DNA of 54,763 nt, taken from Flavobacteriales bacterium (GTDB lineage Bacteria > Bacteroidota > Bacteroidia > Flavobacteriales_F > PHOS-HE28). A program made the position numbers and the translations under genes. The stretch spans positions 1 to 54,763 of the forward strand of contig DASWWQ010000169.1 in assembly GCA_036405935.1 (NCBI GenBank), given 5' to 3'. Within the stretch, counting starts at the first letter, position 1. Each line of letters starts with the position of its first letter. Below are positions 15,541 to 42,056 of the stretch, piece by piece. The notes under the pieces are model-generated. The model was not told where the DNA came from. It searched no databases and saw only the letters and a list, made by a program, of their open reading frames with translations.

Positions 15541-15553
15541 ACTTCACCCGACC

Positions 15554-17143: not shown

Positions 17144-17194
17144 GCTCGCGTTCACCCTTTCGGCCGAAGATAGAAGCGGCGCACAACGCGTGGC

Positions 17195-17264: not shown

Positions 17265-17276
17265 AACAACGCCACC

Positions 17277-25888: not shown

Positions 25889-25920
25889 TTGATCCTATAT
25901 GACTTGGTGGACTTACTTTG
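25889..25920 (+). promoter_or_regulatory. Candidate Bacteroidota-type promoter of the island operon (TTG-N21-TTACTTTG)
   Basis: TTG at 25889..25891 and TTACTTTG at 25913..25920 (7/8 to TAnnTTTG). Lies 27 nt upstream of the ATG at 25948. Confidence 0.35.
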
Positions 25921-25947
25921 GGACAATACGCAAAGCGCAGATTTGGG

Positions 25948-26922
25948 ATGAAGCGTGCAGAAAACAAGCGAACGATTCGCGCGATCGACATGTTCGCTGG
26001 CGGGGGAGGTAGCAGTTGGGGGGCCAAACAGGCCGGAGTGAAGGTGGTTGCCGCGTTTGACTTGTGGCATCTTGCCGAGAAGAACCACGAGGCCAACTTC
26101 CCCGATGTGCGGTTCTATCGTGATCGGCTGGAGAACCTGGATTTGAAAAAGGTCCGTAAAGAGGTGGGCCGGATCGATCTGATCATGGCCTCGCCCGAGT
26201 GCACGAACCACAGCCCGGCCAAAGGCAACAAACCACGCAGCGAGGAAAGCAAGGACACCGCATTTCAAGTCACGCGCTTCGCAGAGGCCTTCAAGCCAAA
26301 GTGGATCGTGGTGGAGAACGTGGTGAACATGCGGAAGTGGTCGCGCTATAAGGAGTTCCAGGGCAAGCTCGAAGCGCTAGGCTATAAGTGCACTGAGCAA
26401 GTATTGAATGCAGCCGACTTTGGAGTGGCCCAAAGCAGGCGGCGACTGTTCCTCCTGTGCCAGCGAGGCAAGAAGGCACCACTCAAGACACACAAGCCCG
26501 ACCTGCCCAAGGTCAGCGTGAGGCCCATCGTGAACATGAACGGTGCGTACCGATGGACACCACTCAACCAGCCCAGACGGGCGAAGGCGACCTTAGAACG
26601 TGCTTCGCGAGGCTTTGAGAAGATGGGCTACAACAGCGCCTTTTTATTAGTCTACTATGGCTCGGATGGCGGTGGTGGCTGGCAGCGATTGAGCCGTCCA
26701 TTGCGCACGATCACAACTGTGGACCGGTTCGCCATCGTGAAGCCGACTCCGCAGGGTCACGTGATGCGGATGCTACAGGTACCGGAACTACAACAAGCGA
26801 TGGGTATGCACGGCATGTGCTTCGAACACGGCACTCGGCGAGACAAGATTAAGATGATTGGGAATGCTGTGTGTCCCCCTGTCATGGCCACTGTACTCAG
26901 AGAACTTACTCGCAACAAGTAA
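25948..26922 (+). CDS. DNA (cytosine-5)-methyltransferase
   Basis: ORF 25918..26922 trimmed to the ATG at 25948. Motif I DMFAGGGG, motif IV ASPECTNHS (P-E-C, not the canonical P-C-Q), ENV (VVENVV), QSRRRLFLL, motif X GNAVCPPV. Confidence 0.92.
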   Translation: MKRAENKRTIRAIDMFAGGGGSSWGAKQAGVKVVAAFDLWHLAEKNHEANFPDVRFYRDRLENLDLKKVRKEVGRIDLIMASPECTNHSPAKGNKPRSEESKDTAFQVTRFAEAFKPKWIVVENVVNMRKWSRYKEFQGKLEALGYKCTEQVLNAADFGVAQSRRRLFLLCQRGKKAPLKTHKPDLPKVSVRPIVNMNGAYRWTPLNQPRRAKATLERASRGFEKMGYNSAFLLVYYGSDGGGGWQRLSRPLRTITTVDRFAIVKPTPQGHVMRMLQVPELQQAMGMHGMCFEHGTRRDKIKMIGNAVCPPVMATVLRELTRNK

Positions 26923-29036
26923 TGGCAGAGCCGGATAGCAAAAAGGGTGTGCAGCTGCATCCGGATGATCTTGTCTTTCAGGTCAAACCGCGCATTCTGG
27001 GACTTCTCGGTGACCAACTAATACGAGACGCTACGCTTGCGGTGTTCGAATTGGTGAAGAACGCATACGATGCCGATGCAAACGAGTGCACCGTAACACT
27101 TGAGGATGCTCTCGATCCGCGCAAATCCCGAATCACGGTCAAAGACAACGGGTCGGGTATGACGCGGGAAACGATTCAAGATTCATGGATGGTGATTGCG
27201 ACAGACTTTCGAACGAGTCAGCGCGCTCGGAACGAAAGAAGTCCTCGGTACAATCGATATGCACTTGGCGAGAAAGGACTTGGGCGCTTCTCTATTCATA
27301 AGCTTGGCCATGAAATCAGAATGACTACAAGGACTGATGGCGGTCCTGAGTATGTTCTGCAAATCCAATGGGATGAACTTGAAAGTTCTAGCGATTTACG
27401 CTTGAGTCCTATTCGCCTGATCACGAGGGAGCCTGAAGTCTTTAAGGGAAAGAAGCATGGCACCCTTATGGAAATTTGGAAGTTACGAGAAGTGTGGGAG
27501 CGTGGTTCCGTGAGACGACTGCATCGTGCCGTGAATAGTCTTTGTTCCCCATTTGACGCCCCCGATGACTTCAAGGTCGAGCTAAAGGTGCCGGGGAATG
27601 AGGAACTGCTTAAAGGACTGCTTCAGGCAGAGAAGATTCCGACTTATGCGCTATACCACGTAAAAGGGCACTTCGAAGGTCATAGGTTGGAGTTTGACTA
27701 CAAGTTCACACCACCGGTTGGACTGCAGCCACTGTTGACCCCGAGCAAGAAGGCCAAGCATTTCTCAGGTAACCTTCAGCGGAAAGAGCTCAAGGGCAAA
27801 CGCAAGCAAGTAACGTTCGATCTGTCGCAACATGAAATTGGTCGGGTTGAATTCGAATTCTGGTTGTTTGATCGGGATCCAGCCGTCTTGCGTGCATCGA
27901 CGGATGACATCAAGGGACTCAAGGATTACCTCGATGAGAATGGTGGGGTAAGAATCTACCGCGACGGAATACGTGTTTATGACTTTGGAGAGCCAGGTAA
28001 TGACTGGCTGAATCTGGATATCCGACGCGTTAACACGCCAACTGCACGTACAAGTAACAATCAGATTATTGGTGCTTTATGGCTCTCAGCTGAGGATAGC
28101 GGCGACCTGAGAGAGAAATCAAATCGTGAGGGGTTCATTGAAAGTCCCGCCTTCAACGATTTCAAAGACGCCGTCATTTCGGTTCTAACCAACGTTGAAG
28201 CAGAGAAGACCCGGGATCAGCAGCACGTGCGCGAAGCTGTTGGTAAGGGCACTGGAGGTCGTGTTTTCACGCACCTGAATGAGTTGCGCGATACGCTTGC
28301 GCAAAAGGGCATGCTGGAGGAGTTGGACCCCCAATTGAAGAAGGTCGAACGCGAGATGGAGTTGTACCGCGACCAGCTATTGCATGCGGCCGTTCCAGGT
28401 CTCTCCATGGGCATGATGCTTCATGGTGCTGAGAAAATCATGGAAGAGCTTCGCGCTGCGGTCAACAAGGGCGAGAGTGTAAAGCACGTTGCAGCGCTTG
28501 TTGATCGGCTGTACAGAGCGATGCGACCGGTCACAAACCTGCTGAAGGACCCAGGCATCGGCAAAACGACGGCCACCGCGTTAATCGCGGAAGCCAAGTT
28601 CTCGACGGCGTTACGTCTTAAGCGTCATGGCATCGCCCCGATCTATCCAGAGCGCCCGTTTGATTTCCCCGTGCGTGGCTCAAAACAAATGCTGGTTGCC
28701 GCGCTTACCAACTTGGTTGACAACGCAATCCACTGGCTAGAGGTCAAGAACCCGGATAAGAAGATTCTCTATCTGAGCACGACAAACGATTTGAGTTCGG
28801 GGCCGGCCATCGTGGTGGGGGACAATGGTCCTGGATTCGGGAGTGATGATCCTCAAGATCTGGTCCTGCCCTTCTTTACACGACGGAGAGACAGCATGGG
28901 ACTCGGTCTCTATATCGTTAACGAGGTAATGGCAGCGAATCAAGGGCGATTGGTCTTTCCGGCAAAAGGAGATATCAACCTGCCGAAGGAAGTTACCGGT
29001 GCCGTGGTCGCGTTGCAGTTTCCAGACAAGCCATGA
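26922..29036 (+). CDS. Double Bergerat-fold protein: N-terminal MORC/MutL/Hsp90-type GHKL ATPase module plus C-terminal histidine-kinase-like DHp + CA module
   Basis: The ATG at 26922 shares one nt with the MTase stop (TAATG). N-terminal half: ELVKNAYDA (N box), DNGSGM (G1, nt 27144..27161), GEKGLGRFS (G2). C-terminal half: helical MMLHGAEKIMEEL (His501, nt 28422..28424), NLVDNAIHW, GDNGPGF (nt 28821..28838), GLGLYIV. No TM segments. Confidence 0.8.
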   Translation: MAEPDSKKGVQLHPDDLVFQVKPRILGLLGDQLIRDATLAVFELVKNAYDADANECTVTLEDALDPRKSRITVKDNGSGMTRETIQDSWMVIATDFRTSQRARNERSPRYNRYALGEKGLGRFSIHKLGHEIRMTTRTDGGPEYVLQIQWDELESSSDLRLSPIRLITREPEVFKGKKHGTLMEIWKLREVWERGSVRRLHRAVNSLCSPFDAPDDFKVELKVPGNEELLKGLLQAEKIPTYALYHVKGHFEGHRLEFDYKFTPPVGLQPLLTPSKKAKHFSGNLQRKELKGKRKQVTFDLSQHEIGRVEFEFWLFDRDPAVLRASTDDIKGLKDYLDENGGVRIYRDGIRVYDFGEPGNDWLNLDIRRVNTPTARTSNNQIIGALWLSAEDSGDLREKSNREGFIESPAFNDFKDAVISVLTNVEAEKTRDQQHVREAVGKGTGGRVFTHLNELRDTLAQKGMLEELDPQLKKVEREMELYRDQLLHAAVPGLSMGMMLHGAEKIMEELRAAVNKGESVKHVAALVDRLYRAMRPVTNLLKDPGIGKTTATALIAEAKFSTALRLKRHGIAPIYPERPFDFPVRGSKQMLVAALTNLVDNAIHWLEVKNPDKKILYLSTTNDLSSGPAIVVGDNGPGFGSDDPQDLVLPFFTRRRDSMGLGLYIVNEVMAANQGRLVFPAKGDINLPKEVTGAVVALQFPDKP

Positions 29037-30436
29037 TTGAACAGCTCACTTCACCTTCAGTTTGCCTGATTGACGACGAAGCCGAGGACTATGGGCCGAT
29101 GCTAAAGGCCTTGTTCAGGCTGGGGGTCGCATGTATTCACTTTACAGGCTCGTCACATAAAGGAACGCCCAAGAAGCCTTTGGCAGATTTGCAACTCGTG
29201 TTCATGGATTTGCATCTGCAAGGCAGCATGGGCAAAACGGCGACTGCTCATGCCGTGAACGTTTTCACAAAGACAGTTTCTCCCAAGGCTGGTCCAGTGG
29301 TGGTGGTCATTTGGAGCAAGTATGCCAACGATCCTCCTCACGATCTCCCTCCCGAAGATGAGGCAACTACAGAAGTTGGCCGTTTCAAAACCGCGCTTAA
29401 GGAAACGATGGGTGATGCCTATGATCGCCTAATCATGTTAGTAATGCCCAAACCTCATCGAAATCAAAGGCCAGCCAATGATCGTTGGGTTCGCGATGTT
29501 GCAAACGGGGTAAAGCAAATTCTTGGGCAGCGCGCGGGTATCGGCCTCCTCTGGTCATGGGAGAAGATGGCAAAAGACGCTGCGGGTTCTGTATGTGGAA
29601 TCTTGACAACGCTCGCACTTGGCATGGCTCGTGCGAGCAATGCACCGGCTACTGATGATGGAGGGGAGCCTCTGAATGAGAACATAAAGCAGCTCATGAA
29701 GCTGCTCGCACAGTCCCAAGGTGCATCAGACTGTAGCCCCAAAACCGCCGCGCGCTACCTCATCATGACGATGAATCAATTGGCGCAAGACCAGCTCGAA
29801 CACTTTGTGATCCCCAAGAAGGTCGATGAACAAGGCGCATGGCTCTCAAATGCCTTGAATGCAAATGAACCCCCAGGATTGGATCGAGCTGAACTGAACG
29901 CGATGCTCCTTAGCACCCAGTCAACGGGACAAGATTTCAAACCGGGTACCGTTTATGAGGTGGAGAATGCCTCGGCGTGGGAGAGGCATACTGGACTGAG
30001 CCTCGAAGAGCTGAGATTCGATTGTTGTGTAAAAGGAGCCACAGCCCTTGCAGAGTTGACAGCCAATAGCACTCTGGTTCTCGTGGAATTGACACCTAGT
30101 TGTGACTACGCTCATGTGGGCAAGAGGAAGACCTCGGTTCTTATGGCGGGGCTTGCTGTAAATGAGGCTGCACTAAGACACATCAAGACAGCAGGAACTA
30201 CTAAAATTATTCCTCAGCCGATTGGCGGCAATCAGAGAAATCCGCTGACTAATCGCTTTGCCACGCCTCAGAAGAAGATTGGATTTGTCTTCTGCAGCAT
30301 GTATCCAACAGTTCTGCCTTTGAAGAAGCAACCTAAATGGATTAAGCCCATGGCGCGATTGCGAGAGACCGTGGCAATGGACGTACGATACTGGGCCTCA
30401 TCGCAAGCCGCCCGAGTGGGCTATCTGTCAGTCTGA
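29033..30436 (+). CDS. Receiver (REC)-domain protein with unassigned ~325-aa C-terminal domain
   Basis: ATGA overlap with the upstream gene. REC signature residues are present: LIDDE (D14, D15), VFMDLHL (D59, nt 29207..29209), VVVIWSKY (S95), VMPKP (K140-P141). I recognise no HTH, TM or catalytic motif downstream. Confidence 0.75.
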   Translation: MIEQLTSPSVCLIDDEAEDYGPMLKALFRLGVACIHFTGSSHKGTPKKPLADLQLVFMDLHLQGSMGKTATAHAVNVFTKTVSPKAGPVVVVIWSKYANDPPHDLPPEDEATTEVGRFKTALKETMGDAYDRLIMLVMPKPHRNQRPANDRWVRDVANGVKQILGQRAGIGLLWSWEKMAKDAAGSVCGILTTLALGMARASNAPATDDGGEPLNENIKQLMKLLAQSQGASDCSPKTAARYLIMTMNQLAQDQLEHFVIPKKVDEQGAWLSNALNANEPPGLDRAELNAMLLSTQSTGQDFKPGTVYEVENASAWERHTGLSLEELRFDCCVKGATALAELTANSTLVLVELTPSCDYAHVGKRKTSVLMAGLAVNEAALRHIKTAGTTKIIPQPIGGNQRNPLTNRFATPQKKIGFVFCSMYPTVLPLKKQPKWIKPMARLRETVAMDVRYWASSQAARVGYLSV

Positions 30437-30563
30437 CGATAAGCTTCAGTCATATCAGTGTTTCTGCCTCTCCCCAGAGAACACCTTGAAGAGCAAGAGG
30501 CCCTCCACCGCTCCTCCAAAGAGCATCCGCGACGTGGATGGTCTGTTGGTCCAAGTCACGGTA

Positions 30564-31016
30564 ATGCCAGATGACTTGCTCCTACTTCTGCGCGCCAGAT
30601 TGGAAGAAGAGATGCGCAAGCGTAAGATTGCATTCTCAGTCGGGGCGGTCGGTGAGGGACTTGTGATAAGCCATTTCAAAGGAACTCCTGGACTACCTAA
30701 TCTTCAACTTGCTCCTACCGGAACGAAGAATGTCGATGCGCTTTCGCGAAATGGTGATCGCTATTCGATCAAGACCATCTGCAATGCGAAGAAGACAGGG
30801 ACGATCTATCCCGACGCTTTGGACAAGGACAGACAGCTTTTTGAGTACTTGATTATCGCGCGTTTGACTGCTGACTGGTCATTGCATAGCATTCATCAGT
30901 TCAGCTGGAGCGCTTTCTTGGAAGTTCGTTCGTGGGACAAACGGATGAACGCTTGGTATGTAGCCATTTCTGAACGAGCCATGGCTAAGGCAACGCGCAT
31001 CTTGCCGGTTGAGTAG
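30564..31016 (+). CDS. Small PD-(D/E)xK-like protein (candidate restriction-endonuclease-fold), hypothetical
   Basis: ORF 30486..31016 uses a TTG start. The first ATG is at 30564 (MPDDLLLLLRARL...). GAVGEGLVISHF...GTKNVDALSRNGDRYSIKT gives an E...D...(S)xK arrangement resembling the nuclease core. The assignment rests on motif only. Confidence 0.45.
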   Translation: MPDDLLLLLRARLEEEMRKRKIAFSVGAVGEGLVISHFKGTPGLPNLQLAPTGTKNVDALSRNGDRYSIKTICNAKKTGTIYPDALDKDRQLFEYLIIARLTADWSLHSIHQFSWSAFLEVRSWDKRMNAWYVAISERAMAKATRILPVE

Positions 31017-31293
31017 GCTCTGCATGTCGCTTTAAGGACAGCAGCTGAAAATCTGGAGCCCGCTTATGCGCGTCTTCGGGCATTTCAACGGCGCGATTTG
31101 AGTACTGGAGCGCTCACAGTTTCTACACCTCGCCCGTTATACCTGCTCATCGGTCCGGATCAGTTATCGCGTTGGGAACTTGATCTCCATTTGCTTCGTG
31201 GTACTCCTCCGGCCGCCAAAACGCCGTCTTCAGCGAGGCAGAAAGGACTTACCTACACAGCATCGGAAACTTCGATCAGGCGTTTCTGTCGAA

Positions 31294-32331
31294 CTACGGC
31301 CGATCCACGAAATCGAAGAAGAAGGCGAAACCGTGTTGCTGTTCCAAGACGTGCTTCGCTTCGTCGGCCGCGTAGGTCTGGAGGTGGATGGTGGCCCGAT
31401 TGCGCTCCACCTGCAGCAGACCTTCCGGTGTGGAGGTGAAGGTGGCTTGGCGCGGTCCCCGGAACACATTGAAGTAGCCGTTCGGGTCCGGAGAAAGGGT
31501 GCAGGCTTCCCCACCGTCATCGGTCCCGTGGTGCCAAAGCACGGCGGTCTCGGCGAGTATGGCGAAGTCCTTGGGGTGGAGATAGCCGTTGCGCATGGCT
31601 CGGGCGAAGAGGTCCTGATGATCGGAGAAGAAACACTTGGAATGCAACACGATGTTCATGGGGCATTTCAACCGCAATTCGTTCTCCTCGGGTGGGAGTT
31701 GGCCGTACTCGGCATAGGGGTCTCGGCGACCGGTGCGTTGCAGGAAGCTCGCACGCCCCGCTGTTGTGGTGATCCCCAGCACGCGCTCGTTGATGTACCG
31801 GCCGTGCACGAGGAAGGAATCGAGCAGGAACCGGCGCGTGGCCTCCTCGCTGGTCCGGAACGCGCGTATGCGCTCCGTGTCCGTGCCCATCACCAGCTTG
31901 ATGCTGTCCGAGACATGGCACTGCGTGCAGATGAAGTCGAAGAGGTCCGCACGCTCGGGAGGCTGCACCTGTGCGTCCTTGAACACTTGAGCAACGAGCG
32001 CTCTTTGCCGCGCATCCAAGCCGCGACGCAGTAGGGGAGCGGCATCCAGCGCGGTGATGGGCATGCCCTGGCGCGCGGCGATGCCGAGGAAGTGCAAGAG
32101 GCGCCGCTCGTCCTTCAGGGAAAAAGCGATCTGCGCGGCGATGTAGGGGTCCTTGACGTATGGACGGAACTGCGCGAAAGCCAGGTCGTACTCCACATAG
32201 CAGGAGGAGTCGCGGTGGGCGATGAACTTCCGTTCCGCGGTGTTGATGAGGTCGTAATAGGCGGTGTAGTCGGCGGCGAGAACGGCGCGGCCCAAGAGCA
32301 GGAGCAGGGCGGAGAGCAGGGCTTTGCGCAT
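31294..32331 (-). CDS. Hypothetical secreted protein
   Basis: ORF 31294..32517 trimmed to the ATG at 32331 (MRKALLSALLLLLGRAVLAADY; alternative ATG at 32346). High GC, so the backbone resumes here. Confidence 0.55.
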   Translation of the reverse strand: MRKALLSALLLLLGRAVLAADYTAYYDLINTAERKFIAHRDSSCYVEYDLAFAQFRPYVKDPYIAAQIAFSLKDERRLLHFLGIAARQGMPITALDAAPLLRRGLDARQRALVAQVFKDAQVQPPERADLFDFICTQCHVSDSIKLVMGTDTERIRAFRTSEEATRRFLLDSFLVHGRYINERVLGITTTAGRASFLQRTGRRDPYAEYGQLPPEENELRLKCPMNIVLHSKCFFSDHQDLFARAMRNGYLHPKDFAILAETAVLWHHGTDDGGEACTLSPDPNGYFNVFRGPRQATFTSTPEGLLQVERNRATIHLQTYAADEAKHVLEQQHGFAFFFDFVDRP

Positions 32332-32734: not shown

Positions 32735-35700
32735 ATGCGTGCCCTTTTCCTGTACTTCGTCCTGCTGCCCGTCCTGCTGAAGGCCCAAACACCCACCTAT
32801 GCCTGGGCCCACAGTGTGCGCAACGTAGGCACGGACGGGCAAGGGAACCAGTGCATCGATGTGTCCACCGCCCCCGATGGTAGCCTGTATGCGATCGGGA
32901 TCTCGTACGGCACGGAGGTGATCATCGACGATGTGCTGCTGCCCATGCAGGGCGACCGCCGCTACCTGGTGCGTTTCGACAGCACGGGTAATCCCTTGTG
33001 GAGCCGCAGTCCGGGTGGTTGGGCGGTGGCCGCGGATGGGAATAATGGTGTCTATGTAGCCGGCTTGTTGTTCCAACCGCTCACCTTCGCCGGTACCACC
33101 TACACCCCCAGCGGCAACGATGCCTTCCTGGCGAAATACGGTCCCGATGGCGAGGAACTCTGGCTCCGCAGAATGGGTGGTGCGGGCGATGATGGCGCCT
33201 TCGATGTGGCCGTGGATGGACTGGGCCGCGTGCATGTGAGCGGTTTCTTCACGGGCACGGTGGACTTCGGTGGTGCCACGCTCACGGCCACGCATGCACA
33301 AACGGGTTTCCACGCCAGCTACAACGCTGCCGGTAACCTGCAGTGGGCCGCGCTGGCCGGTGGATACGACCCACCGGAACCGGGGGTGTACACCTGGAAC
33401 GCCCTTGCCTGTGACGGGGAGGGCAACAGCTACATCACGGGCAATTTCACCGGCACCGGTCTGTTCGGAACCAATAGTACGTCCATCAACACCACGCAGA
33501 CCGAACGGCAGTACCTGGCGCGATACGATGCGAACGGCGCCTGCATCTGGGCGGTGGTGAACGGCTCCGCTACGGGGAATGTGGGATCCCACATCTCCCT
33601 ATCCGCCACCGGTGGATTGTACCTGTGCGGCAGTTTCAAGGGTACGGCGGCTTCGTTCGGAGCGAACAACACGGTGTACAATGCGCACCCCAACAACGCT
33701 CAGATCTACGTGGCCCGGTACGACACCGCAGGCGATGGGCAATGGGCCGTGATCCTGACCGGTGGCGTGTTCGGCAGCTCCGCCAGCAGCGTTTGCACCG
33801 ATGCTGCCGGCACGGTGTGGGTGACCGGAACAGCGGGGTCGGGCAGCTCGGACCCGGAGGATGAACTCGTGGATGTCGGTGGCTTCGAGGTATTCGACAA
33901 CCTGATCTTCATTGGTCAGCTCGATCCCGATGGCACGGTGCTGAACGTGGAGAACATGGTGGGCCTGCAATCGCACGGCGCGCACACCATCGATGCCTTC
34001 GGCGCCCACATCACCTACGGATCGCTCTTCAGCTACCGCAATTTCGACCCTGCGGGCATGGCGGTGTTCGGCTCGTCGTTGCTCGATGCCGACAACGGCT
34101 ATGTGGCGCGCTATTCACCCGGCTTCGCATACCGCTGGTTGCGGATGGCGGGGCAGCCTGGCGTGGCGGCTGATGCCACCACCGCCGTGGCGTTGGGCAC
34201 CGCTGGGGAGGTATACAGCACGGGCTACTTCAACACCACGGCCATCATCTGCGGTGACACCTTGTGGGCACCGTTGGAGAACACGCACATCTGGCTGAAC
34301 AAACGTGCGGCGGACGGCAGTTGCTTGTGGAAACGGCAGATCAGGTGCAGCCGCGCCGGCAGCATGTCGCAGGTCAACGCGGCCTTGGGCATGGCCGTAG
34401 CGGCGAACGGCGATGTGGTGTTGTGCGGTCGTTTCTTCGGCACCATCGACTTCGGTGCGGTGCAGTTGACGAGCGTGGGGCGGGCCGACCTCTTCCTGGC
34501 GCGCTTCAACGCGGACGGCACCTGCTTGTGGGCCGTGCGCGGCGGTGGCACCGGTGATGACGAGGGCACCGCGCTCGCGCTGACAGCGAATGGCGACATC
34601 GGGGTCACCGGTGCGTACACGGGCAGCGCCACGATCGCGGGTGTTGCACTCACCAGCCAAGGTGCCACCGACGGTTTCGTGGCGCGGTACAGCGGTAGTG
34701 GGAACAGCCTGGCCTGTGCAAGCTTCGGTGGCAGCGCGGCGGACTTCGGTTCGGCCATTGCCGTGGACGCGACAGGCAACGCATACGTTGCGGGCCGCTT
34801 CACCACCAGCGCCACCTTCGGCACCACCACGCTGGAGAGCACGGCTCTGGAAGACCTCTTCGTAGCGCAATACACGCCCACCAATACCGTGGGGTGGGCA
34901 GTGGGCAGCACGGGTGCGGACCACAAACAAGCGAACGGCATCGCCTTGGGTGCGGGCGGTCGCCTCCATGTGGTAGGCACCTACTACGCGAGCCTCACCT
35001 GGGGTGCCACCACGATCATGGGCGACCCCGCGGCATACCACCCCTTCTTCGCCACCCTGAACACCGCCGGTGAAATGCAATGGTTGCATGACCTGCCCTG
35101 CACCGACGGTTCCGCCCAGGTCATCCGGGTGCGCCCCGGTGGCGAAGTGGTGGTGGGCGGCCAATTCAGCGGAAGTCTGGATGTGGGCACCACGACCGTG
35201 ACCACGAGCGGCACATCGGCAGCTTGGATGGCCGCATTCAACCCCGAAGGCGAAGACCATTGGGTGCAGGTGATGGAGGGCAGTACCAGCGGCGATGCAG
35301 GCCTCTGCTCCACCCTTGCCGTGGACGCCGAACAGGTGATCGCTGGCGGCCATTTCGGCAACTACGTCTTCATGGCCTTTTTCCAACCCGGTTCCACCTT
35401 CTCGTTCGATGCAGGGAGCACTGCTGATGATCTGTTCGCGCCGAACAGTTACGACGCCTACGTGGCGAAGTACACCATCCCGCAGATCATGGCCATCGAT
35501 GAAAGGGGCAGTTCGGCGTTGCTGCTCGCCCCGAACCCGGTGACCCGCACCGGCACCGTCCAACCCGATGCTCCGCTTGCCCCCGACGCCACGGTCCGCA
35601 TCAACGACATCACCGGCCGCACGGTCCACGTACCCTTGCTCCGGCAAACGGAACGGTTCACCTTCGATGCAAGCGCCTTGGCACCGGGAACCTATTTGCT

Positions 35701-35752
35701 CACGCTGGAGCAAGGTGGGATGCAGCGCAGTGTGCGCTTCGTGAAGGAGTGA
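32735..35752 (+). CDS. Large SBBP-type beta-propeller repeat protein with T9SS C-terminal sorting domain
   Basis: ORF 32714..35752 trimmed to the ATG at 32735 (MRALFLYFVLLPVLLKAQ). Repeated GxxxDxGxAIAVDxxGNxYVTGxF units. C-terminus LLLAPNPVTRTGTV...GTYLLTLEQGGMQRSVRFVKE. Confidence 0.8.
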   Translation: MRALFLYFVLLPVLLKAQTPTYAWAHSVRNVGTDGQGNQCIDVSTAPDGSLYAIGISYGTEVIIDDVLLPMQGDRRYLVRFDSTGNPLWSRSPGGWAVAADGNNGVYVAGLLFQPLTFAGTTYTPSGNDAFLAKYGPDGEELWLRRMGGAGDDGAFDVAVDGLGRVHVSGFFTGTVDFGGATLTATHAQTGFHASYNAAGNLQWAALAGGYDPPEPGVYTWNALACDGEGNSYITGNFTGTGLFGTNSTSINTTQTERQYLARYDANGACIWAVVNGSATGNVGSHISLSATGGLYLCGSFKGTAASFGANNTVYNAHPNNAQIYVARYDTAGDGQWAVILTGGVFGSSASSVCTDAAGTVWVTGTAGSGSSDPEDELVDVGGFEVFDNLIFIGQLDPDGTVLNVENMVGLQSHGAHTIDAFGAHITYGSLFSYRNFDPAGMAVFGSSLLDADNGYVARYSPGFAYRWLRMAGQPGVAADATTAVALGTAGEVYSTGYFNTTAIICGDTLWAPLENTHIWLNKRAADGSCLWKRQIRCSRAGSMSQVNAALGMAVAANGDVVLCGRFFGTIDFGAVQLTSVGRADLFLARFNADGTCLWAVRGGGTGDDEGTALALTANGDIGVTGAYTGSATIAGVALTSQGATDGFVARYSGSGNSLACASFGGSAADFGSAIAVDATGNAYVAGRFTTSATFGTTTLESTALEDLFVAQYTPTNTVGWAVGSTGADHKQANGIALGAGGRLHVVGTYYASLTWGATTIMGDPAAYHPFFATLNTAGEMQWLHDLPCTDGSAQVIRVRPGGEVVVGGQFSGSLDVGTTTVTTSGTSAAWMAAFNPEGEDHWVQVMEGSTSGDAGLCSTLAVDAEQVIAGGHFGNYVFMAFFQPGSTFSFDAGSTADDLFAPNSYDAYVAKYTIPQIMAIDERGSSALLLAPNPVTRTGTVQPDAPLAPDATVRINDITGRTVHVPLLRQTERFTFDASALAPGTYLLTLEQGGMQRSVRFVKE

Positions 35753-35815
35753 AACGGGTTCGTGAGCTGAGCCCTTCACCGAGCCCTACCTGTATGTCCC
35801 GGGTGGCAGACCCCG

Positions 35816-36358
35816 CTACATGTTGCGGCGATATTGACCACCGACCTCGAACATGGCGGCGGTCAGCTGCCCCAACGAACAGTACTTGGTCGCCTCCATG
35901 AGCACTTCGAACATGTTCTCGTTCTTGATCGCGGCCTGCTGCAGGTCCTTGATCGCCTTGGCGGCTTCTTCGCTGTAGGCGGCACGCAGGTTCTCCACCG
36001 TGGCGATCTGGGCCTCTTTCTCCTCTTCCGTTGCCCGGATCACCTCCTTCGGCAATACGGTCGGAGAACCTTTGGAACTCAGGAAGGTGTTCACACCGAT
36101 GATCGGGTATTCGCCGGTGTGCTTGAGGGTCTCGTAGTGTGGGTGCCACGAAGATCTCCGATCCAGCGCCACTGCGGCCGGGCCGCAGCCCTGCGGGTGA
36201 GCGCCCCTCGTCCGCCCATACTTCGTTGCTCGTCGGTCAGCTACCGGGTGGTAGCCTCCCTACCTCGCGCCTCGTCTGGCCGAACGATGGACGCTCATGG
36301 CATCTGTTCGGAGATCTCCGAGGCACCCTGGCTCTCCTCCTGGATGCGGCTGCGCTGG
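35816..36358 (-). pseudogene. icmF: 3' remnant of a second icmF copy (last ~125 codons), interrupted by a MITE-like element
   Basis: The ORF 35816..36172 peptide is identical over about 105 aa ([13 protein letters not shown]...GGQYRRNM) to the C-terminus of the intact icmF. By my hand alignment the DNA differs at roughly 25 of about 320 positions, all synonymous and including TCG versus AGC Ser. Homology resumes at 36329..36358 after the insertion. Confidence 0.85.
36141..36328. mobile_element. 188-bp MITE-like element with 23-bp terminal inverted repeats
   Basis: Left end GGGTGCCACGAAGATCTCCGATC (36141..36163). The reverse complement of the right end (36306..36328) is GGGTGCCTCGGAGATCTCCGAAC, 20/23 matching. 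It interrupts sequence that is contiguous in the intact icmF (37128..37140). Confidence 0.6.
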
Positions 36359-36366
36359 ATAGTGGC

Positions 36367-36804
36367 TCATTGAATGTTCAAGGTAAAGGAGCCACCATTC
36401 CCGCAAGCCAGCAGATGCACATTGTAACTACCATTGGGAAAGTCGGTTATGTTCAACCATTGCAGTGAGTCCTGGTCGAACGCAAAGCCAATTGTGTCAA
36501 CTATACCATTCCCGGTTATCCTGTAGTCTGACCTCGTGCCCCAGGGCGGAAAGTGCAGCAGTTGTTGCGGGCACTCATGATCGCGCACAATCGTCGTGTC
36601 AAAGGAGCGTGTTCCGGGAAGATCGAGATCCGCTGGTACGATGAGCGAATAGCGGCAAGTGTCCATGCCGGGCTCTACCTCGCCGTTCCTGATAGCCGTT
36701 TCGCGCATTTCACTGTAATGGCAGAAGACAACGTTCTCCCACCACCAGTTACCGACTGCTCCGGCACCGGCAAGCACAAGCGCGAGGAACAGCCCCCACC
36801 TCAT
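36367..36804 (-). CDS. Hypothetical exported protein (145 aa), low GC
   Basis: Signal-like MRWGLFLALVLAGAGAVG. Exactly fills the gap between the stop of the intact icmF (36807) and the end of the 3' remnant homology (36358). Confidence 0.55.
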   Translation of the reverse strand: MRWGLFLALVLAGAGAVGNWWWENVVFCHYSEMRETAIRNGEVEPGMDTCRYSLIVPADLDLPGTRSFDTTIVRDHECPQQLLHFPPWGTRSDYRITGNGIVDTIGFAFDQDSLQWLNITDFPNGSYNVHLLACGNGGSFTLNIQ

Positions 36805-36806
36805 GG

Positions 36807-39800
36807 CTACATGTTCCTGCGGTACTGCCCACCGACTTCGAACATGGCGGCGGTCAGCTGTCCAAGGCTACAGTACTTGGTCGCTTCCATGAGCACTTCG
36901 AACATGTTCTCGTTCTTGATCGCGGCCTGCTGCAGGTCCTTGATCGCCTTGGCGGCTTCTTCGCTGTAGGCCGCGCGCAGATTCTCCACCGTGGCGATCT
37001 GCGCCTCCTTCTCTTCCTCCGTTGCCCGGATCACTTCCTTCGGCAATACGGTCGGAGAACCTTTCGAACTCAGGAAGGTGTTCACACCGATGATCGGGTA
37101 TTCGCCGGTGTGCTTCAGCGTTTCGTAGTAGAGGCTTTCCTCCTGGATGCGGCTGCGCTGGTACATGGTCTCCATGGCGCCGAGCACGCCGCCGCGTTCG
37201 GTGATGCGGTCGAACTCGGTGAGTACGGCCTCTTCCACCAGGTCGGTGAGCTCTTCGATGATGAAGCTGCCCTGCAACGGGTTCTCGTTCTTGGCCAGGC
37301 CGAGCTCCTTGTTGATGATCAGCTGGATGGCCATGGCGCGGCGCACGCTTTCCTCGGTGGGCGTGGTGATGGCCTCGTCGTAGGCGTTTGTGTGCAGGCT
37401 GTTGCAGTTGTCGTAGATGGCGTAGAGCGCCTGCAACGTGGTGCGGATGTCGTTGAAGTCGATCTCCTGCGCGTGGAGGCTGCGGCCGCTGGTCTGGATG
37501 TGGTACTTGAGCATCTGGCTGCGCTCGTCGGCGCCGTAGCGGTGCTTGAGCGCCTTGGCCCAGAGGCGGCGCGCCACGCGGCCCATCACGGCGTATTCGG
37601 GGTCCATGCCGTTGCTGAAGAAGAAGCTCAGGTTGGGCGCGAAGGCGTTGATGTCCATGCCGCGGCTGAGGTAGTACTCCACGTAGGTGAAGCCGTTGGC
37701 CAGCGTGAACGCGAGCTGCGAGATGGGGTTGGCGCCGGCCTCCGCGATGTGGTAGCCGCTGATGCTGACGCTGTAGAAGTTGCGGACCTTCTTGTCGATG
37801 AAGTACTGCTGCACGTCGCCCATCAACCGCAGCGCGAACTCGGTGCTGAAGATGCAGGTGTTCTGCGCCTGGTCCTCCTTGAGGATGTCGGCCTGCACGG
37901 TGCCGCGGACCTGCGCGAGGGTGTCGGCCTTGATCTTGGCGTAGACGTCGGGGGGGAGGACTTGGTCGCCGGTTATTCCGAGCAACAGCAAGCCGAGACC
38001 GTCGTTGCCTTGGGGGATCTCACCATGGTAATGCGGCCGTGCGCTGCTGGCCTTAGGCTGCTGGCTGCTGGCCTGCTTGGCGTGGCCAGTAGCCAGGAGC
38101 GAGGAGCCAGCAGCTTTCCACCGCTCTTGGATCTTCTTCTCCACCTCTGCTTCCAGTCCGTGCTCCCGGATATACTTCTCGCAGTTCTGATCGATGGCTG
38201 CGTTCATGAAGAAGCCGAGCAGCATGGGTGCCGGACCGTTGATGGTCATGCTCACGCTGGTGGTGGGTGCGCTCAGGTCGAAGCCGCTGTAGAGCTTCTT
38301 GGCATCGTCGAGGCAGCAGATGCTCACGCCACTGTTGCCCACCTTGCCGTAGATGTCGGGACGGCGGCCGGGATCATGCCCATACAGCGTCACGCTGTCG
38401 AAGGCGGTGCTGAGGCGCTTGGCCGGTAGGCCTTGGCTGACGTAGTGGAAGCGCTTGTTGGTGCGCTCGGGTCCGCCCTCGCCGGCGAACATGCGTGCGG
38501 GATCCTCGCCTTGGCGTTTGAACGGATAGATGCCCGCCGTGTAGGGGAAGAAGCCGGGCGTGTTCTCCTGCATGGCCCAGCGGACCTTGTCGCCCCAGCT
38601 GCGGAACTTCGGCAGCGCCACCTTCGGGATCTTCAGGTGACTGAGGCTCTCGGTGTGGTTGGGCACCTTGATCTCCTTGCCGCGTACCAGGTAGGTGTAG
38701 AACTCGCCGCTGTACTTCTCCTCTTCGCTCTTCCAGCCCGTGAGCATGGACCAGAGGTGGGGGTCGAGATCCTTGCGCAGCTCATCGAACTTCTTGACCA
38801 ATGAAGCTACTTCTGGGCCCAGTTGCGGGTTGACGGGTTGACGGGTTGTGTGTTGGCTGTCGTCCTCCACCCGTAACCCGCCAACCCGCAACCCGTCAAC
38901 GCTTTCGAGCAGATCCGGTCCCCCGAAGGTCAGAACGGCCGAGTACAATCCGTACAGCTTGTCCGCGATCTCCGCCTGCTGCTTCACCTTGCCGTCGTAG
39001 CGGCGGTTGTTCTCGCTGATCTCGCTGAGGTAGCGGCTCTTGGCGGGGGGGATGATCCAGACCTTTTCGCTCATCTCGTCGTGCGCGGCGAAGGTGCTCT
39101 TGAAGTCCGTGCCCGTCTTCTCGGCGATCTTCTTCATCAAGCGCGCATAGAGCACGTTGGTGCCGGGATCGTTGAACTGGCTCGCGATGGTGCCCACCAC
39201 GGGCAGGTCATCGTCATTGGCGTCCCACAGCTGGTGGTTGCGCTTGTACTGCTTCTTCACGTCGCGCAGGGCATCGAGGGCGCCGCGCTTGTCGAACTTG
39301 TTGATGGCCACCACATCGGCGAAGTCGAGCATGTCGATCTTCTCCAACTGCGTGGCCGCGCCGAACTCCGGCGTCATGATGTAGAGGCTGACGTCGCTGT
39401 GGTCCAGGATCTCGGTGTCGCTCTGGCCGATGCCGCTCGTTTCCAGCACGATCAGGTCGAAGCCTGCGGCCTTCAGCACGCTCACCGCCTCCTTCACGTG
39501 CTTGCTCAGCGCGAGGTTGCTCTGGCGCGTGGCCAAGGAACGCATGTACACCCGCTCCCCGCGGATGCTGTTCATGCGGATGCGGTCGCCCAGCAGCGCA
39601 CCGCCGGTCTTGCGCTTGCTCGGGTCCACGGAAATGACACCGATCGTCTTCGTGGGTTGGTCCAGGATGAAACGGCGGATCAGCTCATCCACCATGGAGG
39701 ATTTGCCCGCGCCGCCCGTACCCGTGATGCCCAGCACCGGCGCCTTGCTGGCCTCGGCCTTCTTGTGGATCTCGTCGGCGATCTTCCCGAACACCGCCGG

Positions 39801-40334
39801 GTGGTTCTCCGCCGTGCTGATCAACTTGGCGATGGCCGGCCAGTTCTGCGGCGTCAGCTTCTTCGCTTCGCCGTTCACCTTGTCGCTGAGGTCGAAGTCG
39901 GCCTTCTCCAGCATGTCGTTGATCATGCCCTGGAGGCCCATCGCGCGGCCGTCGTCCGGATGATAGAGTCGCGTGATGCCGTACCGATGCAGTTCCTCGA
40001 TCTCCTCGGGCAGGATGGTGCCGCCGCCGCCGCCGAAGATCTTGATGTGCCCTGCGCCCTTCTCCTTCAGCAGGTCGTACATGTACTTGAAGTACTCCGT
40101 GTGCCCGCCCTGGTAGCTGGTCATGGCGATGGCGTGCGCATCCTCCTGGATCGCGGTGTTCACCACGTCCTCCACGCTGCGGTCGTGCCCCAGGTGGATC
40201 ACCTCGGCGCCGGTGCTCTGGATGATGCGCCGCATGATATTGATGGCGGCATCATGGCCATCGAAGAGGCTGGCGGCGGTAACGACGCGGATCTTGTGCT
40301 TGGGCTGGTAGGGAGGGGCGGTGACGAAGGACAT
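36807..40334 (-). CDS. icmF: Fused isobutyryl-CoA mutase (B12-binding domain + MeaB-like GTPase + mutase TIM barrel)
   Basis: 1175 aa. N-terminal B12 domain ([18 protein letters not shown]), P-loop [16 protein letters not shown], and a C-terminal methylmalonyl-CoA-mutase-like domain ([19 protein letters not shown]). Confidence 0.93.
38043..38114. repeat. In-frame hairpin-forming insertion in icmF (GCTGCTGG-type repeats)
   Basis: 31-nt arms at 38043..38073 and 38084..38114, 24/31 complementary, with a 10-nt loop. Encodes part of [18 protein letters not shown]. Confidence 0.6.
38822..38900. repeat. In-frame hairpin-forming insertion in icmF (GGGTTG-type heptamer/octamer repeats)
   Basis: Left arm GTTGCGGGTTGACGGGTTGACGGGTTG (38822..38848). 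The reverse complement of the right arm (38868..38900) is GTTGACGGGTTGCGGGTTGGCGGGTTACGGGTG. Encodes [27 protein letters not shown] in the GTPase-mutase linker. Confidence 0.65.
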
Positions 40335-40635
40335 GCTGGGCTGCCGCAGCTAGGGCGCGGCTTGCCGCGAAGGTATTGGTCCAGCTTCTATCGGGGCGCG
40401 TTCGGGCGTGCCCCTTCCCCCACTCACCCTTCCAACGCACGGGTCGCGTGCTACGCTGTAGTCCCGCACCATCGGCCAGCGGCTGCTCTTGCGGCGGTGG
40501 CTTCCTGCTGTCGCCTCATCGCTGTGGCATCCCCAAGGCCTCTGGGTGCGCGAGCTGTCGCTACGCCCGCTCACGCGGAACTCGTTCCCGGTCCTGAACT
40601 GTCGATTGCAAGACCTCTCCAATCCGAGTTCCGGT

Positions 40636-41469
40636 TCAATGCTCCTGATCATACATCCCCATGATGTGCCGCATTGCTTCTTCTTGAACGCTTGCTAGCA
40701 TTGGGTCATCGGGGTGAAGGGCAGTGTAGTGCTGTAGGAACCATATCGGGATCTGGTCATGCTGGAATCTCCAATTCGAATCTTCCTCCGTCCGTTTCAT
40801 CTCACAGAACAATCGACTTTCCTTTCTGGAATTATCCCACAAATAAGCATGGTAGGCTATTCCCAATGCCTCGTTCAGGTGGCCCATGGTTCGATCATAA
40901 CGTTTGATGATCTTATCCCTTGGCACATCATGTCCACCCTGCTTCACCCGGATCTCCTTCACGCGTTGCACGTTGATATCCGGGGTCTCCGTAGAAACGA
41001 AGTACAAGTACACCTTGTAGCCCGCCGCCTTCGCCCGCTTCATCAACTCCAGCTTGTTCGGATGGCTGAACACCGTCTCGAAGGAGAACTTCCGCTTCGC
41101 CTTCAGTAACTCATCGTACAGGAACTGCGCGATCAGCTGGGCCACACGGTCCTTGGGCAACGCGGGTTCAGAGCGGACGCGTTTCGGTGTCCAACGCACA
41201 CCTTCAGCCAATCGCTCAACGGTCAATGCCTTATCCAACAAGCCTGAAATGTTCGCAAAGGCTATGAAGCCCTCGGTACCCAGTTCCAGATCGAACGGCG
41301 TTAGATCATAGCCCTTGCCCAACGCTTTCGCTATTTCGTCCGCGTTGATGTACACACCGAAGTCGACGGGGCGTCCATTCACCCGTGCCTTCCGAACCTC
41401 CTCGATGATAGTGGTCTTACCTGATCCGTTTGGACCAGCGAATACCCGCAAGCGCAACGAACGCGCCAT
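40636..41469 (-). CDS. Zeta-toxin / COG4185-type P-loop kinase-fold protein
   Basis: 277 aa. Walker A VFAGPNGSGKTT. FETVFSHP...GYKVYLYFVSTETPDINVQRVKEIRVKQGGHDVPRDKIIKRYDRT matches the zeta/AAA_33-like pattern. Lower GC than neighbours. Confidence 0.75.
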   Translation of the reverse strand: MARSLRLRVFAGPNGSGKTTIIEEVRKARVNGRPVDFGVYINADEIAKALGKGYDLTPFDLELGTEGFIAFANISGLLDKALTVERLAEGVRWTPKRVRSEPALPKDRVAQLIAQFLYDELLKAKRKFSFETVFSHPNKLELMKRAKAAGYKVYLYFVSTETPDINVQRVKEIRVKQGGHDVPRDKIIKRYDRTMGHLNEALGIAYHAYLWDNSRKESRLFCEMKRTEEDSNWRFQHDQIPIWFLQHYTALHPDDPMLASVQEEAMRHIMGMYDQEH

Positions 41470-41473
41470 AGGT

Positions 41474-41698
41474 TCAAGCTGCCGGTAGTTCGATCCGCTT
41501 GACCTTCTTCTTCACCTTGCCGCTCTTGTCCACCCGCACCAACCAGCCATCCTGAACCACCAACAAGGTATCGACCACCTTGAACGCTGCTTTGCTGGCC
41601 GCTTTGGTCGCCGTGGCCGAAGCGCGCCGCAAGGCCTTGCTCGTGAGCGGAGCTTTCACCGCCTTCTTGCGGGGGCGCGCAGTGGATTTCGTGGCCAT
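41474..41698 (-). CDS. Small basic protein, candidate cognate antitoxin/partner of the zeta-like gene
   Basis: 74 aa and Lys/Ala-rich. Lies 4 nt upstream of the zeta-like gene on the same strand. Confidence 0.45.
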   Translation of the reverse strand: MATKSTARPRKKAVKAPLTSKALRRASATATKAASKAAFKVVDTLLVVQDGWLVRVDKSGKVKKKVKRIELPAA

Positions 41699-41715
41699 GG
41701 GTGAAAGATACGCCC

Positions 41716-41900
41716 GTATCGTGCCTCATGTGGATCACCTCCGCTCCGGTGCTCTGGATGATACGCCGTATGATGTTGCCCGGGTCAGAGCCCGGGGCAG
41801 GTTCCGGCCTCGTGGTCATCGAAGAGGCTGGCGGCGGTAACGACGTGGATCCCTCGACAAGCTCGGGACAGGTTCTTGTGCTTAGGGACGTAGGGAGGGG
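41716..41900 (-). pseudogene. icmF: 5' remnant of the second icmF copy (about first 55 codons) with small palindromic insertions
   Basis: The reverse strand reads PFVQAPPYVPKHK...[13 protein letters not shown]...[19 protein letters not shown], versus [51 protein letters not shown] in the intact gene. Upstream-region similarity continues to about 41965 (GGGCGTGCCCC block). Confidence 0.75.
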
Positions 41901-42056
41901 CTTGGACGAATGGCCTGGCGTGAAAGTACCGGGCACGATGCGAACGCGGAAGTGTTTGGGCGTGCCCCGGCCCAAAGCCAGCCGGGTCGGGCCGACCGCT
42001 GGAAGTCCGCAGTCGTGGTTCCGGAGCCTTGGCCCCATCACGGTAGCTTTGTCCGC

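Follow-up and report, generated by a model that had tools for sequence, protein, structure and literature searches.

Introduction

Integrative elements are known that restore the gene end which they interrupt, such as e14 in icd, the dusA-specific islands, which act at a 5' end, and SGI1 at trmE, and such elements carry a gene for a tyrosine or serine integrase that acts at a single att site. Homology-facilitated illegitimate recombination (HFIR) is another named process by which DNA can be joined to a genome. In tycheposon islands, arriving elements push older ones, together with partial copies of the target, deeper into the island (bioRxiv 10.1101/2020.12.28.424599). Here we describe a locus in contig DASWWQ010000169.1 of GCA_036405935.1, an uncultured Flavobacteriales bacterium, where a complete gene for the fused isobutyryl-CoA mutase IcmF stands between displaced copies (stubs) of its own two ends, with cargo genes between the live gene and each stub; the whole stretch of 54,763 nt (~54.8 kb) that was analysed is referred to as the window. 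We found no description of icmF-end cassettes in the literature, and to our knowledge the recurrence of such insertions at one gene across a clade has not been described. We are fairly sure that the locus records two independent end-replacement events and not one, and we regard two insertions by compact cassettes, entering through recombination, as the probable and overall best explanation of what is seen.

Repeats in the region were searched for by Self-BLASTN, domains were called with Pfam, defence genes with PADLOC and RNA families with Rfam. Close relatives were reached via protein clusters and then via the contigs encoding those proteins, and the close clade as counted here comprises 10 distinct genomes including the window, taken from the group of IcmF proteins that are 86–92% identical. 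A distant set consists of the approximately 160 icmF loci listed in scans of genomes and metagenome contigs (GTDB, JGI), which are only 66–74% identical. The metagenome evidence consists of assembled Logan contigs from soil-metagenome runs, including X1 and X2, and X4 and X7 were also compared; relatives are designated by L followed by a number.

Results

The live icmF gene and its displaced ends

The intact gene (36807..40334, minus strand, as for all other genes and gene remnants of the locus) encodes a protein of 1175 aa in which Pfam domains follow in the order B12-binding (residues 16–119), MeaB (169–368) and MM_CoA_mutase (best stretch 799–1168, E 6e-118). Judged by this three-domain order and by homology, the product is the fused isobutyryl-CoA mutase IcmF, and the same domains rule out that it is the IcmF of type VI secretion systems. 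The protein is 86–92% identical to IcmF of many Flavobacteriales metagenome-assembled genomes (MAGs), and its nearest relatives are labelled methylmalonyl-CoA or isobutyryl-CoA mutase by their sources. The parts of the live gene that are paired with a stub are the last ~107–118 codons (36807..~37161), the first ~51 codons and the promoter region. An intact icmF nested between 5' and 3' remnants of icmF had been proposed in an earlier, sequence-only reading of this stretch, and the Self-BLASTN search recovered the repeats at the places given there. Only one other sizeable repeat is present in the window, 78 bp at 77% identity (15467–15541 vs 17191–17265).

The displaced resident 3' end consists of two pieces. 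Its distal part (35816..36138), a pseudogene fragment without an upstream body, comprises codons 1069–1175 and the stop codon, and 35815–36138 repeats 36806–37129 over 324 bp at 92% identity. The proximal part (36330..36358) is the place where the 3' duplication begins and holds 29 nt, equivalent to codons ~1058–1068, which repeat 37133–37161 with 28 of the 29 nt identical. The extent of 36358..35816 first assigned to this remnant was thus correct, but its continuity was not, as the 29 nt are followed by a 191-nt inverted-repeat element and only then by codons 1069–1175. Over 106 codons (1070–1175) the stub and the live gene encode the same peptide and differ at 25 nucleotides in 21 codons, including one AGC/TCG serine switch, corresponding to a synonymous divergence (dS) of 0.36, in agreement with the roughly 25 differences and the serine switch counted by hand before; the sole other altered codon, Y1069H, lies at the junction. 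The probability of obtaining such an all-synonymous pattern by chance is ~1e-17. Since none of the 25 differences changes an amino acid, both 3' copies evolved as functional genes and neither as a truncated local copy, which bears out the proposal that they diverged under purifying selection in different lineages and do not stem from a recent local duplication.

This pattern bears directly on a purely local history, in which icmF was duplicated in tandem within this lineage, deletions and cargo insertions came later and no gene ends were imported. Such a history would agree with the two 3' copies of the window being each other's closest relatives (92% identity, compared to at most 84% to other assembled lineages). 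However, 25 synonymous-only differences in 106 codons are impossible for a truncated local copy, and the functional 3' ends of X4 and X7 are 93–96% identical to the stub and fall into the same allele group, and we therefore consider a local origin highly improbable. The membership of the X4 and X7 ends in the allele group of the stub moreover indicates that donor and recipient were related lineages.

The displaced resident 5' end (41719..41917) is equivalent to codons 1–51 and aligns with the live gene in three segments, 41719–41778 vs 40183–40242 (88%), 41805–41851 vs 40247–40293 (91%) and 41871–41917 vs 40289–40335 (77%). Directly before it lies the old icmF promoter-proximal region (41919..41975, minus strand), with CCGGTACTTTCACG at 41919–41932 and GGGGCACGCCCAAAC at 41954–41968, and the 5' duplication takes in this promoter-proximal region too (GGGGCACGCCC..CCGGTACTTTCACG). 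The old promoter region aligns with the sequence directly before the icmF ATG in L084, L171, and L175 and with the sequence before the 5' stubs in L083, L086, and L167. The motif CCGGTAnTTTCGC stands directly before the icmF ATG in the former three genomes and before the stub in the window (41919–41932), and a slightly different second copy of it precedes the live icmF of the window (40366–40379). This second copy is located in the spacer that separates the zeta-like gene from the live icmF (40335..40635, minus strand), which holds the duplicated promoter-proximal region, with CCAATACCTTCGCG at 40366–40379 and GGGGCACGCCCGAAC at 40399–40413, as well as a repeated element of ~137 nt. Hence, the old promoter and first codons (51 of them) previously assigned to this end are indeed present, but in a clearly degraded state. 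The start codon has changed from ATG to AGG, two insertions of ~22–24 nt interrupt the stub (41779–41804 and ~41852–41870), and 8 replacements in ~49 codons affect residues that are invariant in nine relatives (M1, S2, R16, G26, D28, M34, L48, and G49). A junction of 20 nt (41699–41718) separates the stub from the cassette.

The 5' stubs of several lineages contain small palindromic insertions, e.g., CCTGCCTGCCGGCAGGCAGG, at the same two places, following codons ~16 and ~33, with sequences that differ from lineage to lineage; outside the window they are located at 6180–6218 in L083, ~7934–7953 in L086 and 6317–6342 in L167. In L083 and L086 the sole promoter-like motif lies upstream of the 5' stub, suggesting that the stub may serve as a leader or upstream open reading frame (ORF) for the live gene.

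Two probable events of different age

The two stubs differ strikingly in decay. Had the 3' stub been damaged at the rate of the 5' stub, its 106 codons should hold ~17 changes at invariant sites, while none was seen (Poisson P ~4e-8), and from this unequal decay it follows that the 5' and 3' events are of different age. A strain that is 99.5% identical to the window (X4) carries the 5' stub and the zeta cassette, and its icmF 3' end runs uninterrupted into the same downstream gene. One X4 contig, at ~10x like the zeta contig, passes from the stub-type 3' end into the icmF body, with ACAGGCTTTCCTCCTGGATGCGGCTGCGCT after position 36138, and a second contig joins the stub-type 3' end to the downstream type IX secretion system gene. 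ORF145, the cargo gene at the 3' end, and the 191-nt element are absent from the X4 contigs, where the depth is 0 at 36171–36841. In X7, a more distant relative, the 3' end is uninterrupted as well, and its stop codon is followed by CTGTATTTCCCGGGTGGCAGACCCC, which is the sequence found after the stop codon of the stub in the window. Because the uninterrupted ends of X7 and X4 join the same downstream sequence, the stub marks the ancestral end of the gene, in keeping with the earlier idea that the remnants come from a gene whose ends formerly lay at these positions. The presence of the 5' cassette in X4 without the 3' one further demonstrates that the 3' cassette can be present or absent independently of the 5' cassette.

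Synonymous divergence along the live icmF is mosaic. Compared to L083 and L169, dS is 0.11–0.14 for codons 813–1068, 0.36 for codons 60–330 and 1.2–1.5 for the last 107 codons, and an abrupt drop in identity occurs near codon 1075–1080 in every pairwise comparison (L083, L086, L167, L169, L171, L175, L179, and L180). The terminal ~100 codons (36807–37130) thus have approximately ten times the dS of the preceding 256 codons (37131–37900), and the peptide is near-invariant in both. The low dS of the gene body indicates that the body is native to the clade, and a foreign origin is suggested for the last ~100 codons only. The ten-fold contrast could stem from termini that travel with cargo, from recombination that homogenised the upstream block or from selection against similar tandem repeats.

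The sequence-only reading had favoured a single xenologous replacement in situ, in which a foreign block of ~5.4 kb with the small ORF, the zeta-like gene, a complete icmF and ORF145 recombined into the resident gene and deleted its interior. The layout of stub, cargo, whole gene, cargo and stub is formally compatible with this, and large old fragments in L179 and L169, in which the upstream region is fused to codons ~813–1175, show that events on the scale of a whole gene have taken place in the clade. In contrast, one replacement does not agree with stubs of which one has accumulated 8 invariant-site changes, two insertions and the loss of its start codon and the other none of these, with a strain that carries one cassette only, with a body dS of 0.11–0.14 where only the last ~100 codons are deeply divergent, or with the one-ended and stacked events seen in relatives. 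We therefore consider a single replacement very unlikely. The fallback offered by the same reading, two separate insertions carrying homology to the gene ends, fits the evidence much better, and the stubs are the ordinary scars of two such insertions and provide no evidence for a wholesale xenologous replacement of the gene.

An uninterrupted ancestral 5' locus was not found in X6, X7, X8, or X12, whose contigs leave the window at position 40375, inside the promoter motif, and in which the upstream GNAT/nitrilase gene is absent at ≥80% identity. Similarly, the 3' ends, ORF145 homologues and zeta pairs of the examined relatives are all too distant for a donor, reaching at best 78–82% at the DNA level.

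Support for the junctions

Logan contigs of X1 and X2 match every junction exactly, with an even depth of ~6–8x over the stub, the 191-nt element, ORF145 and the flanks, and these runs are possibly the source of the window itself. The 5' arrangement is independently supported by a 1774-bp contig of X4 that covers 40221–41993 with 8 mismatches and includes the live 5' end, the spacer, the zeta-like gene, the small ORF and the stub. Independent support for the 3' arrangement comes from L169, a 228-kb contig of GCA_963851815.1, where the 3' end, an ORF145 homologue, the 29 nt, the element and the stub are colinear.

An assembly artefact would require that an uninterrupted icmF and a free circle of ~1 kb, holding the 3' end, ORF145, the 29 nt and the element, or else two strains in a chimera, were mis-joined over shared identical stretches of 50–86 bp. 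The contigs of X1 and X2 break within stretches that are identical between the copies (36095–36124) and cannot phase them, and strains with an uninterrupted 3' end co-occur in related samples. Against a mis-join are the even depth in X1 and X2, the independent assembly of the same order in L169, the analogous arrays in CP064979.1, a single 4.48-Mb record, and the 25 differing sites between the copies, which ordinary paired reads can phase. We regard an artefact as highly improbable.

Stubs and cargo in relatives

Stubs of icmF are common in the close clade. Seven of the 10 genomes carry 3' stubs (the window, L083, L086, L167, L169, L179, and L180) and five carry 5' stubs (the window, L083, L086, L167, and L179), whereas L084, L171, and L175 have none. 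Among the distant relatives, 3' stubs were found in 2 of the ~160 loci listed, namely L032 and L077 of Hymenobacter terrenus, where two stubs are present. Several loci are stacked. In L086, icmF is followed by ORF95 (DUF6881), a stub, ORF197 and another stub, and in L167 by ORF151 (a homologue of ORF145), a stub, a DUF2281 and PIN pair and another stub, while L169 contains five fragments that alternate with an alpha/beta hydrolase, an ORF145 homologue and a DUF4160 pair. L179 (CP064979.1) has, on the 5' side, a stub ending at codon 47 and two small ORFs and, on the 3' side, a fragment of ~363 codons (leader fused to codons ~813–1175), ORF135, a stub of codons 1133–1175, ORF129 and a stub of codons 1154–1175. 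In L083 a remnant is followed by an AAA_15 ATPase, a methylase and a BsuBI/PstI-type restriction enzyme. The same genome has a duplicated 3' end of katG (521 bp, 92%; 17245–17764 vs 18984–19501), with a HigB toxin and its HTH_3 partner between the live end and the stub, showing that the process is not specific to icmF. In addition, the last 648 bp of icmF are 100% identical in L084 and L175, which have similar downstream gene content and otherwise different IcmF proteins, indicating that recombination breakpoints lie inside icmF.

Cassette units measure 0.3–1.4 kb and carry one or two cargo genes. The cargo typically starts 0–80 nt after an icmF-type stop codon, often as ATGTGATG, and stops 0–30 nt short of the following stub, the exception being L032 with ~220 nt, and it ranges from an Ig-like membrane protein through toxin-antitoxin pairs and a hydrolase to restriction-modification genes. 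Stub starts vary between codons ~813, 1021, 1058, ~1072, 1131, 1133, 1135, 1140–1148 and 1154–1155, and on the 5' side the junctions were placed at codon 47 and codon 51 in the two cases examined. In several stub/live pairs a mismatch already occurs in the first 3–14 nt, and hence there is no shared identical core. Neither an integrase nor a fragment of one was found in more than 15 cassettes of nine genomes, based on direct scans of all cargo ORFs of the window and of the cargo of L032, L077, L083, and L086, and on recorded Pfam matches for the cargo of the other relatives, where several small ORFs have no match. The only transposase- or nuclease-like gene inside any of the cassettes encodes a PDDEXK_2 protein of the PD-(D/E)XK nuclease family transposases and lies in L077 (14070–15125), between icmF and its first 3' stub. 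Scans of the window's own cargo, and of ~10 kb to each side of the icmF locus there, detected no recombinase domain.

These data also bear on whether the stubs are scars of site-specific integration, left by integrase-borne islands, or by cassettes served by a recombinase in trans, at att sites in the icmF ends, with the mobility genes deleted later. Elements of this kind are recognised by a duplicated target end and a restored gene, and at this locus the live gene is complete and both displaced ends are kept. Arrays of partial targets arise by serial integration in tycheposon islands (bioRxiv 10.1101/2020.12.28.424599), the stub starts of L083, L086, L167, and L169 cluster at codons 1140–1148, and the first 29 nt of the 3' duplication in the window are nearly identical between the copies. 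On the other hand, the cassettes are small and no integrase was seen in them, the start points are spread from codon ~813 to codon ~1155 without a common crossover, and the same pattern is found at both ends of icmF and at katG. The window contains no tRNA or tmRNA gene, which excludes a tRNA-type att site, and Rfam searches gave no family at gathering thresholds in the whole window and only chance-level matches when E-values were relaxed for 35700–36900. A shared att site at codon 1069 was also considered and rejected, since the boundary at this codon in the window and in L169 is the insertion point of the 191-nt element within a longer stub; the stub of L167 begins at codon ~1072 and lacks that element. 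In our judgement, site-specific integration is an unlikely, yet not negligible, explanation.

Long dead copies of icmF, in which the leader is fused to codons ~813–1175 and preceded by the 137-nt element, were observed in L169 (7344–10989 and 17677–19914) and L179 (17753–20123). The two copies in L169 are 95.5% identical over 558 bp, there is no intact icmF on that contig, and a metal-resistance cluster occupies the place where the 5' two thirds of icmF would be.

Repeated elements at the junctions

The conserved repeated element of ~137 nt (40441–40577), which is probably structured, occupies part of the spacer upstream of the live icmF. It is also found just 3' of the zeta gene in L171–L174 (L171 10861–10972) and bordering incomplete icmF or katG copies on their outer side in L083 (17112–17249), L169 (7344–7482 and 17677–17815) and L179 (17753–17886), and the copies of the latter three genomes are 91–98% identical to their common consensus. 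No Rfam family matched the element.

The 191-nt element (36139..36329, minus strand) is non-coding, resembles a miniature inverted-repeat transposable element (MITE) with terminal inverted repeats GGGTGCC..GGCACCC, and splits the 3' stub at codon 1068/1069. In the sense of icmF its RNA is predicted to fold into a long rod (−126.5 kcal/mol, z = −7.1; z = −1.8 for the other strand). L169 has a 95%-identical copy in the same place and a 74%-identical copy that splits another icmF fragment at codon 942, so that three copies are known in two genomes, with two different icmF positions and target sites resembling CTCWASTAC. Insertion left no clean target-site duplication, and 3–4 nt of the target were replaced. 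Neither an Rfam family nor a parent transposase was identified for the element. An intron or riboswitch was considered and dismissed, as the element occurs only in dead copies, adds a net 188 nt with an in-frame stop codon and matches no family. Probably it is a site-preferring MITE that survives only in dead copies of the gene.

Cargo proteins

The cargo of the 3' cassette, ORF145 (36367..36804), is predicted to be a small membrane-anchored protein with an Ig-like beta-sandwich. Its start codon follows the stop codon of the live icmF by 2 nt, and it ends 8 nt before the stub; the junction of the 29-nt piece to the ORF145 cassette is also present in L169. ORF145 had been described as low-GC, but at a G+C of 0.56–0.57 compared to ~0.60–0.65 around it, it does not stand out. 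No Pfam or PADLOC match was obtained, a look-up of the exact protein returned nothing, and its relatives form only four clusters among 5.8 billion proteins. All homologues for which the neighbourhood was read (L167/L168, L169, and L170) begin at an icmF 3' end. The AlphaFold model (pLDDT 70) has an N-terminal transmembrane helix and a beta-sandwich, with no significant match in the PDB and weak Ig-like matches (TM ~0.3).

The cargo of the 5' cassette consists of a zeta-toxin-like P-loop protein of 277 aa (40636..41469) and a basic ORF of 74 aa (41474..41698), located 4 nt upstream of it. The match of the former to Zeta_toxin (PF06414) is weak and partial, covering only residues 111–189 with 30.9 bits (cut-off 22.3), and a Walker A motif, GPNGSGKT, is present. 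The protein belongs to a large family in Bacteroidota whose members are named 'predicted ABC-type ATPase' or zeta toxin by their sources. Partners of the small ORF (73–75 aa, 68–72% identical) precede every zeta homologue examined, and the ORF, which has no Pfam or PADLOC match, is presumed to be an antitoxin or regulator. The pair is located directly upstream of the stubless icmF of L175, with a spacer of 163 bp, upstream of icmF with one gene between in L171–L174, and in an unrelated context in L177 (82% identity). The homology of the cassette with L175, L171, and L177 begins only ~15 nt before the ATG of the small ORF, and arrangements like that of L175 could therefore have been donors.

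Other features of icmF and of the window

The live icmF contains an imperfect palindrome, in frame, in its first linker (38829–38900), and similar in-frame linker palindromes of 60–85 nt are present in L083 (10216–10289), L167 (7940–7999 and 8700–8775), L179 (11434–11517 and 12202–12276) and L180 (12224–12288); they look like hairpin-forming insertions that are tolerated there. Two other IcmF relatives, P0037 (1321 aa) and P0093 (1326 aa), carry an in-frame insert of ~160 residues with a DUF559 (Vsr-like endonuclease) domain in the second linker, which, in the alignment made for P0037 only, falls between the positions of residues 743 and 760 in the window IcmF. A stand-alone MTES_1575/DUF559 ORF follows the 3' stub in L032.

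Elsewhere in the window, a block of lower G+C (25918–31016) is probably a restriction-modification or defence islet. Its products are a DrmMII-like C5 cytosine methylase, a HATPase_c_3 protein of 721 aa that matches restriction enzymes weakly, a 467-aa protein without assigned function and a methyl-directed or Vsr-like endonuclease. The G+C is 0.49–0.55 over ~30000–31400, the 3' part and flank of this block.

Discussion

Each of the two events at this locus left icmF intact while adding cargo in the same orientation. In the older event, a cassette with the small ORF, the zeta-like gene, the ~137-nt element and a replacement promoter with first codons would have joined the resident gene at codon 51, whereupon the resident promoter and first 51 codons were displaced upstream and then decayed. 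In the more recent event, a replacement terminus with the tightly coupled ORF145 would have joined at about codon 1058 and displaced the resident last ~117 codons downstream, and it is this stub that also carries the 191-nt element. The cargo is flanked by direct repeats of 351 nt on the 3' side and ~200–260 nt on the 5' side, with unrelated filler of 8 nt and 20 nt at the respective junctions, and cargo between direct repeats of the target together with outer junctions that vary between loci is the anatomy expected of Campbell-type integration or HFIR.

We lean slightly towards entry of the cassettes by recombination anchored in the conserved icmF. Homologous recombination would take place within this very conserved gene, and the far junction would be made once, by illegitimate joining. 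The direct repeats formed by the live end and the stub could then act as portable homology arms, so that a cassette might be excised as a circle and reintegrate through one crossover, or reach another genome as a copy through a double crossover. New cassettes would enter beside the live gene and drive older stubs outward, which would generate arrays without the need for an integrase encoded by the element. More tentatively, we speculate that in this Flavobacteriales clade truncated ends of conserved housekeeping genes, here both ends of icmF and the 3' end of katG, serve as portable homology arms for integrase-free mini-cassettes, mostly with toxin-antitoxin or defence-type genes or genes for uncharacterised membrane proteins, that excise, spread between diverged lineages and stack through host recombination. 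If so, the 137-nt and 191-nt elements at the junctions might assist, and the excess of dS in the last ~100 codons could be a by-product, either through termini that move together with cargo or through repeats being stable only when diverged.

Several observations weigh against two end-replacement insertions by host recombination. Apart from CP064979.1 (L179), the sole single record, the relatives are metagenome assemblies or MAGs. The absence of the 3' cassette from X4 could reflect a secondary loss between the repeats, which weakens the case for an independent gain, although the cassette would still be separable. Neither a donor nor a circular form or recombination intermediate was seen in the assembled contigs, and the route is deduced from anatomy. 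Between the window and L169 the 191-nt element has 95% identity, yet dS reaches 1.3 in the adjoining ORF145, which is not accounted for by a simple co-transfer of the whole unit. The clustering of stub starts at codons 1140–1148, in at least four genomes, may be due to a preferred site as opposed to shared ancestry, and the repeats at several junctions, namely the 137-nt element and the 191-nt element with its two similar targets, might play an active part. A recombinase acting in trans on unrecognised sites, which the clustering of stub starts would suit, is the main rival to recombination by the host.

If two end-replacement insertions did shape this locus, a core metabolic gene has acted as a landing pad where accessory genes are added at both ends without breaking it and without a mobility gene in the cargo. 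This would provide a cheap route for toxin-antitoxin and defence-type genes between diverged uncultured Bacteroidota, one that is invisible to tools that look for integrases. Partial copies of gene ends would mark insertion events, and their state of decay could be read as a relative clock. The last ~100 codons of icmF in this clade would have a history unlike that of the remainder, which affects phylogenies based on this single gene and dN/dS scans.

Among known systems, the icmF cassettes resemble elements of the e14, dusA and SGI1 type in that the insert brings a replacement gene end, the displaced end stays beyond the cargo and the copies differ mostly at synonymous sites. Unlike those elements, they contain one or two genes with no integrase found, have variable junctions and use both ends of the gene. 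Similarly to the tycheposon islands of Prochlorococcus, insertion takes place beside an intact target, arrays of partial targets are pushed outward and the cargo is of the defence and toxin-antitoxin type. However, tycheposons have integrases and replication modules and leave partial copies of the tRNA genes beside which they sit, whereas at icmF it is the terminus of a protein-coding metabolic gene that is repeated, and neither mobility genes nor fragments of them were seen. The pair in the 5' cassette is comparable to epsilon/zeta modules, as a P-loop zeta-like protein follows a small co-oriented ORF after a gap of 4 nt and the pair occurs in several unrelated contexts, but the Pfam match is confined to part of the protein, the small ORF has no similarity to epsilon and toxicity is putative.

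The orphan arrays of Rhs and CdiA (PMC3967940) likewise consist of a full gene, cargo and displaced 3' fragments with a conserved coding stretch able to recombine. Rhs and CdiA tips, though, differ in the toxin that they encode and come with the cognate immunity gene as cargo, while the tips of icmF, a housekeeping enzyme, encode the same peptide over 106 residues; with this identical peptide in the displaced tip and a heterogeneous cargo, a polymorphic-toxin orphan array was rejected as a description of the locus. HFIR and transformation merodiploids (PMC3784515) share with the icmF cassettes one homologous anchor and one non-homologous joint, partial duplications, variable ends and the lack of a recombinase of their own; these cases are laboratory events in competent species. 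In conclusion, by analogy with these systems the pattern at icmF resembles a variation on the known behaviour of additive islands and orphan arrays, in the form of compact cassettes without an integrase that are placed at both ends of a core gene and recur within a clade.

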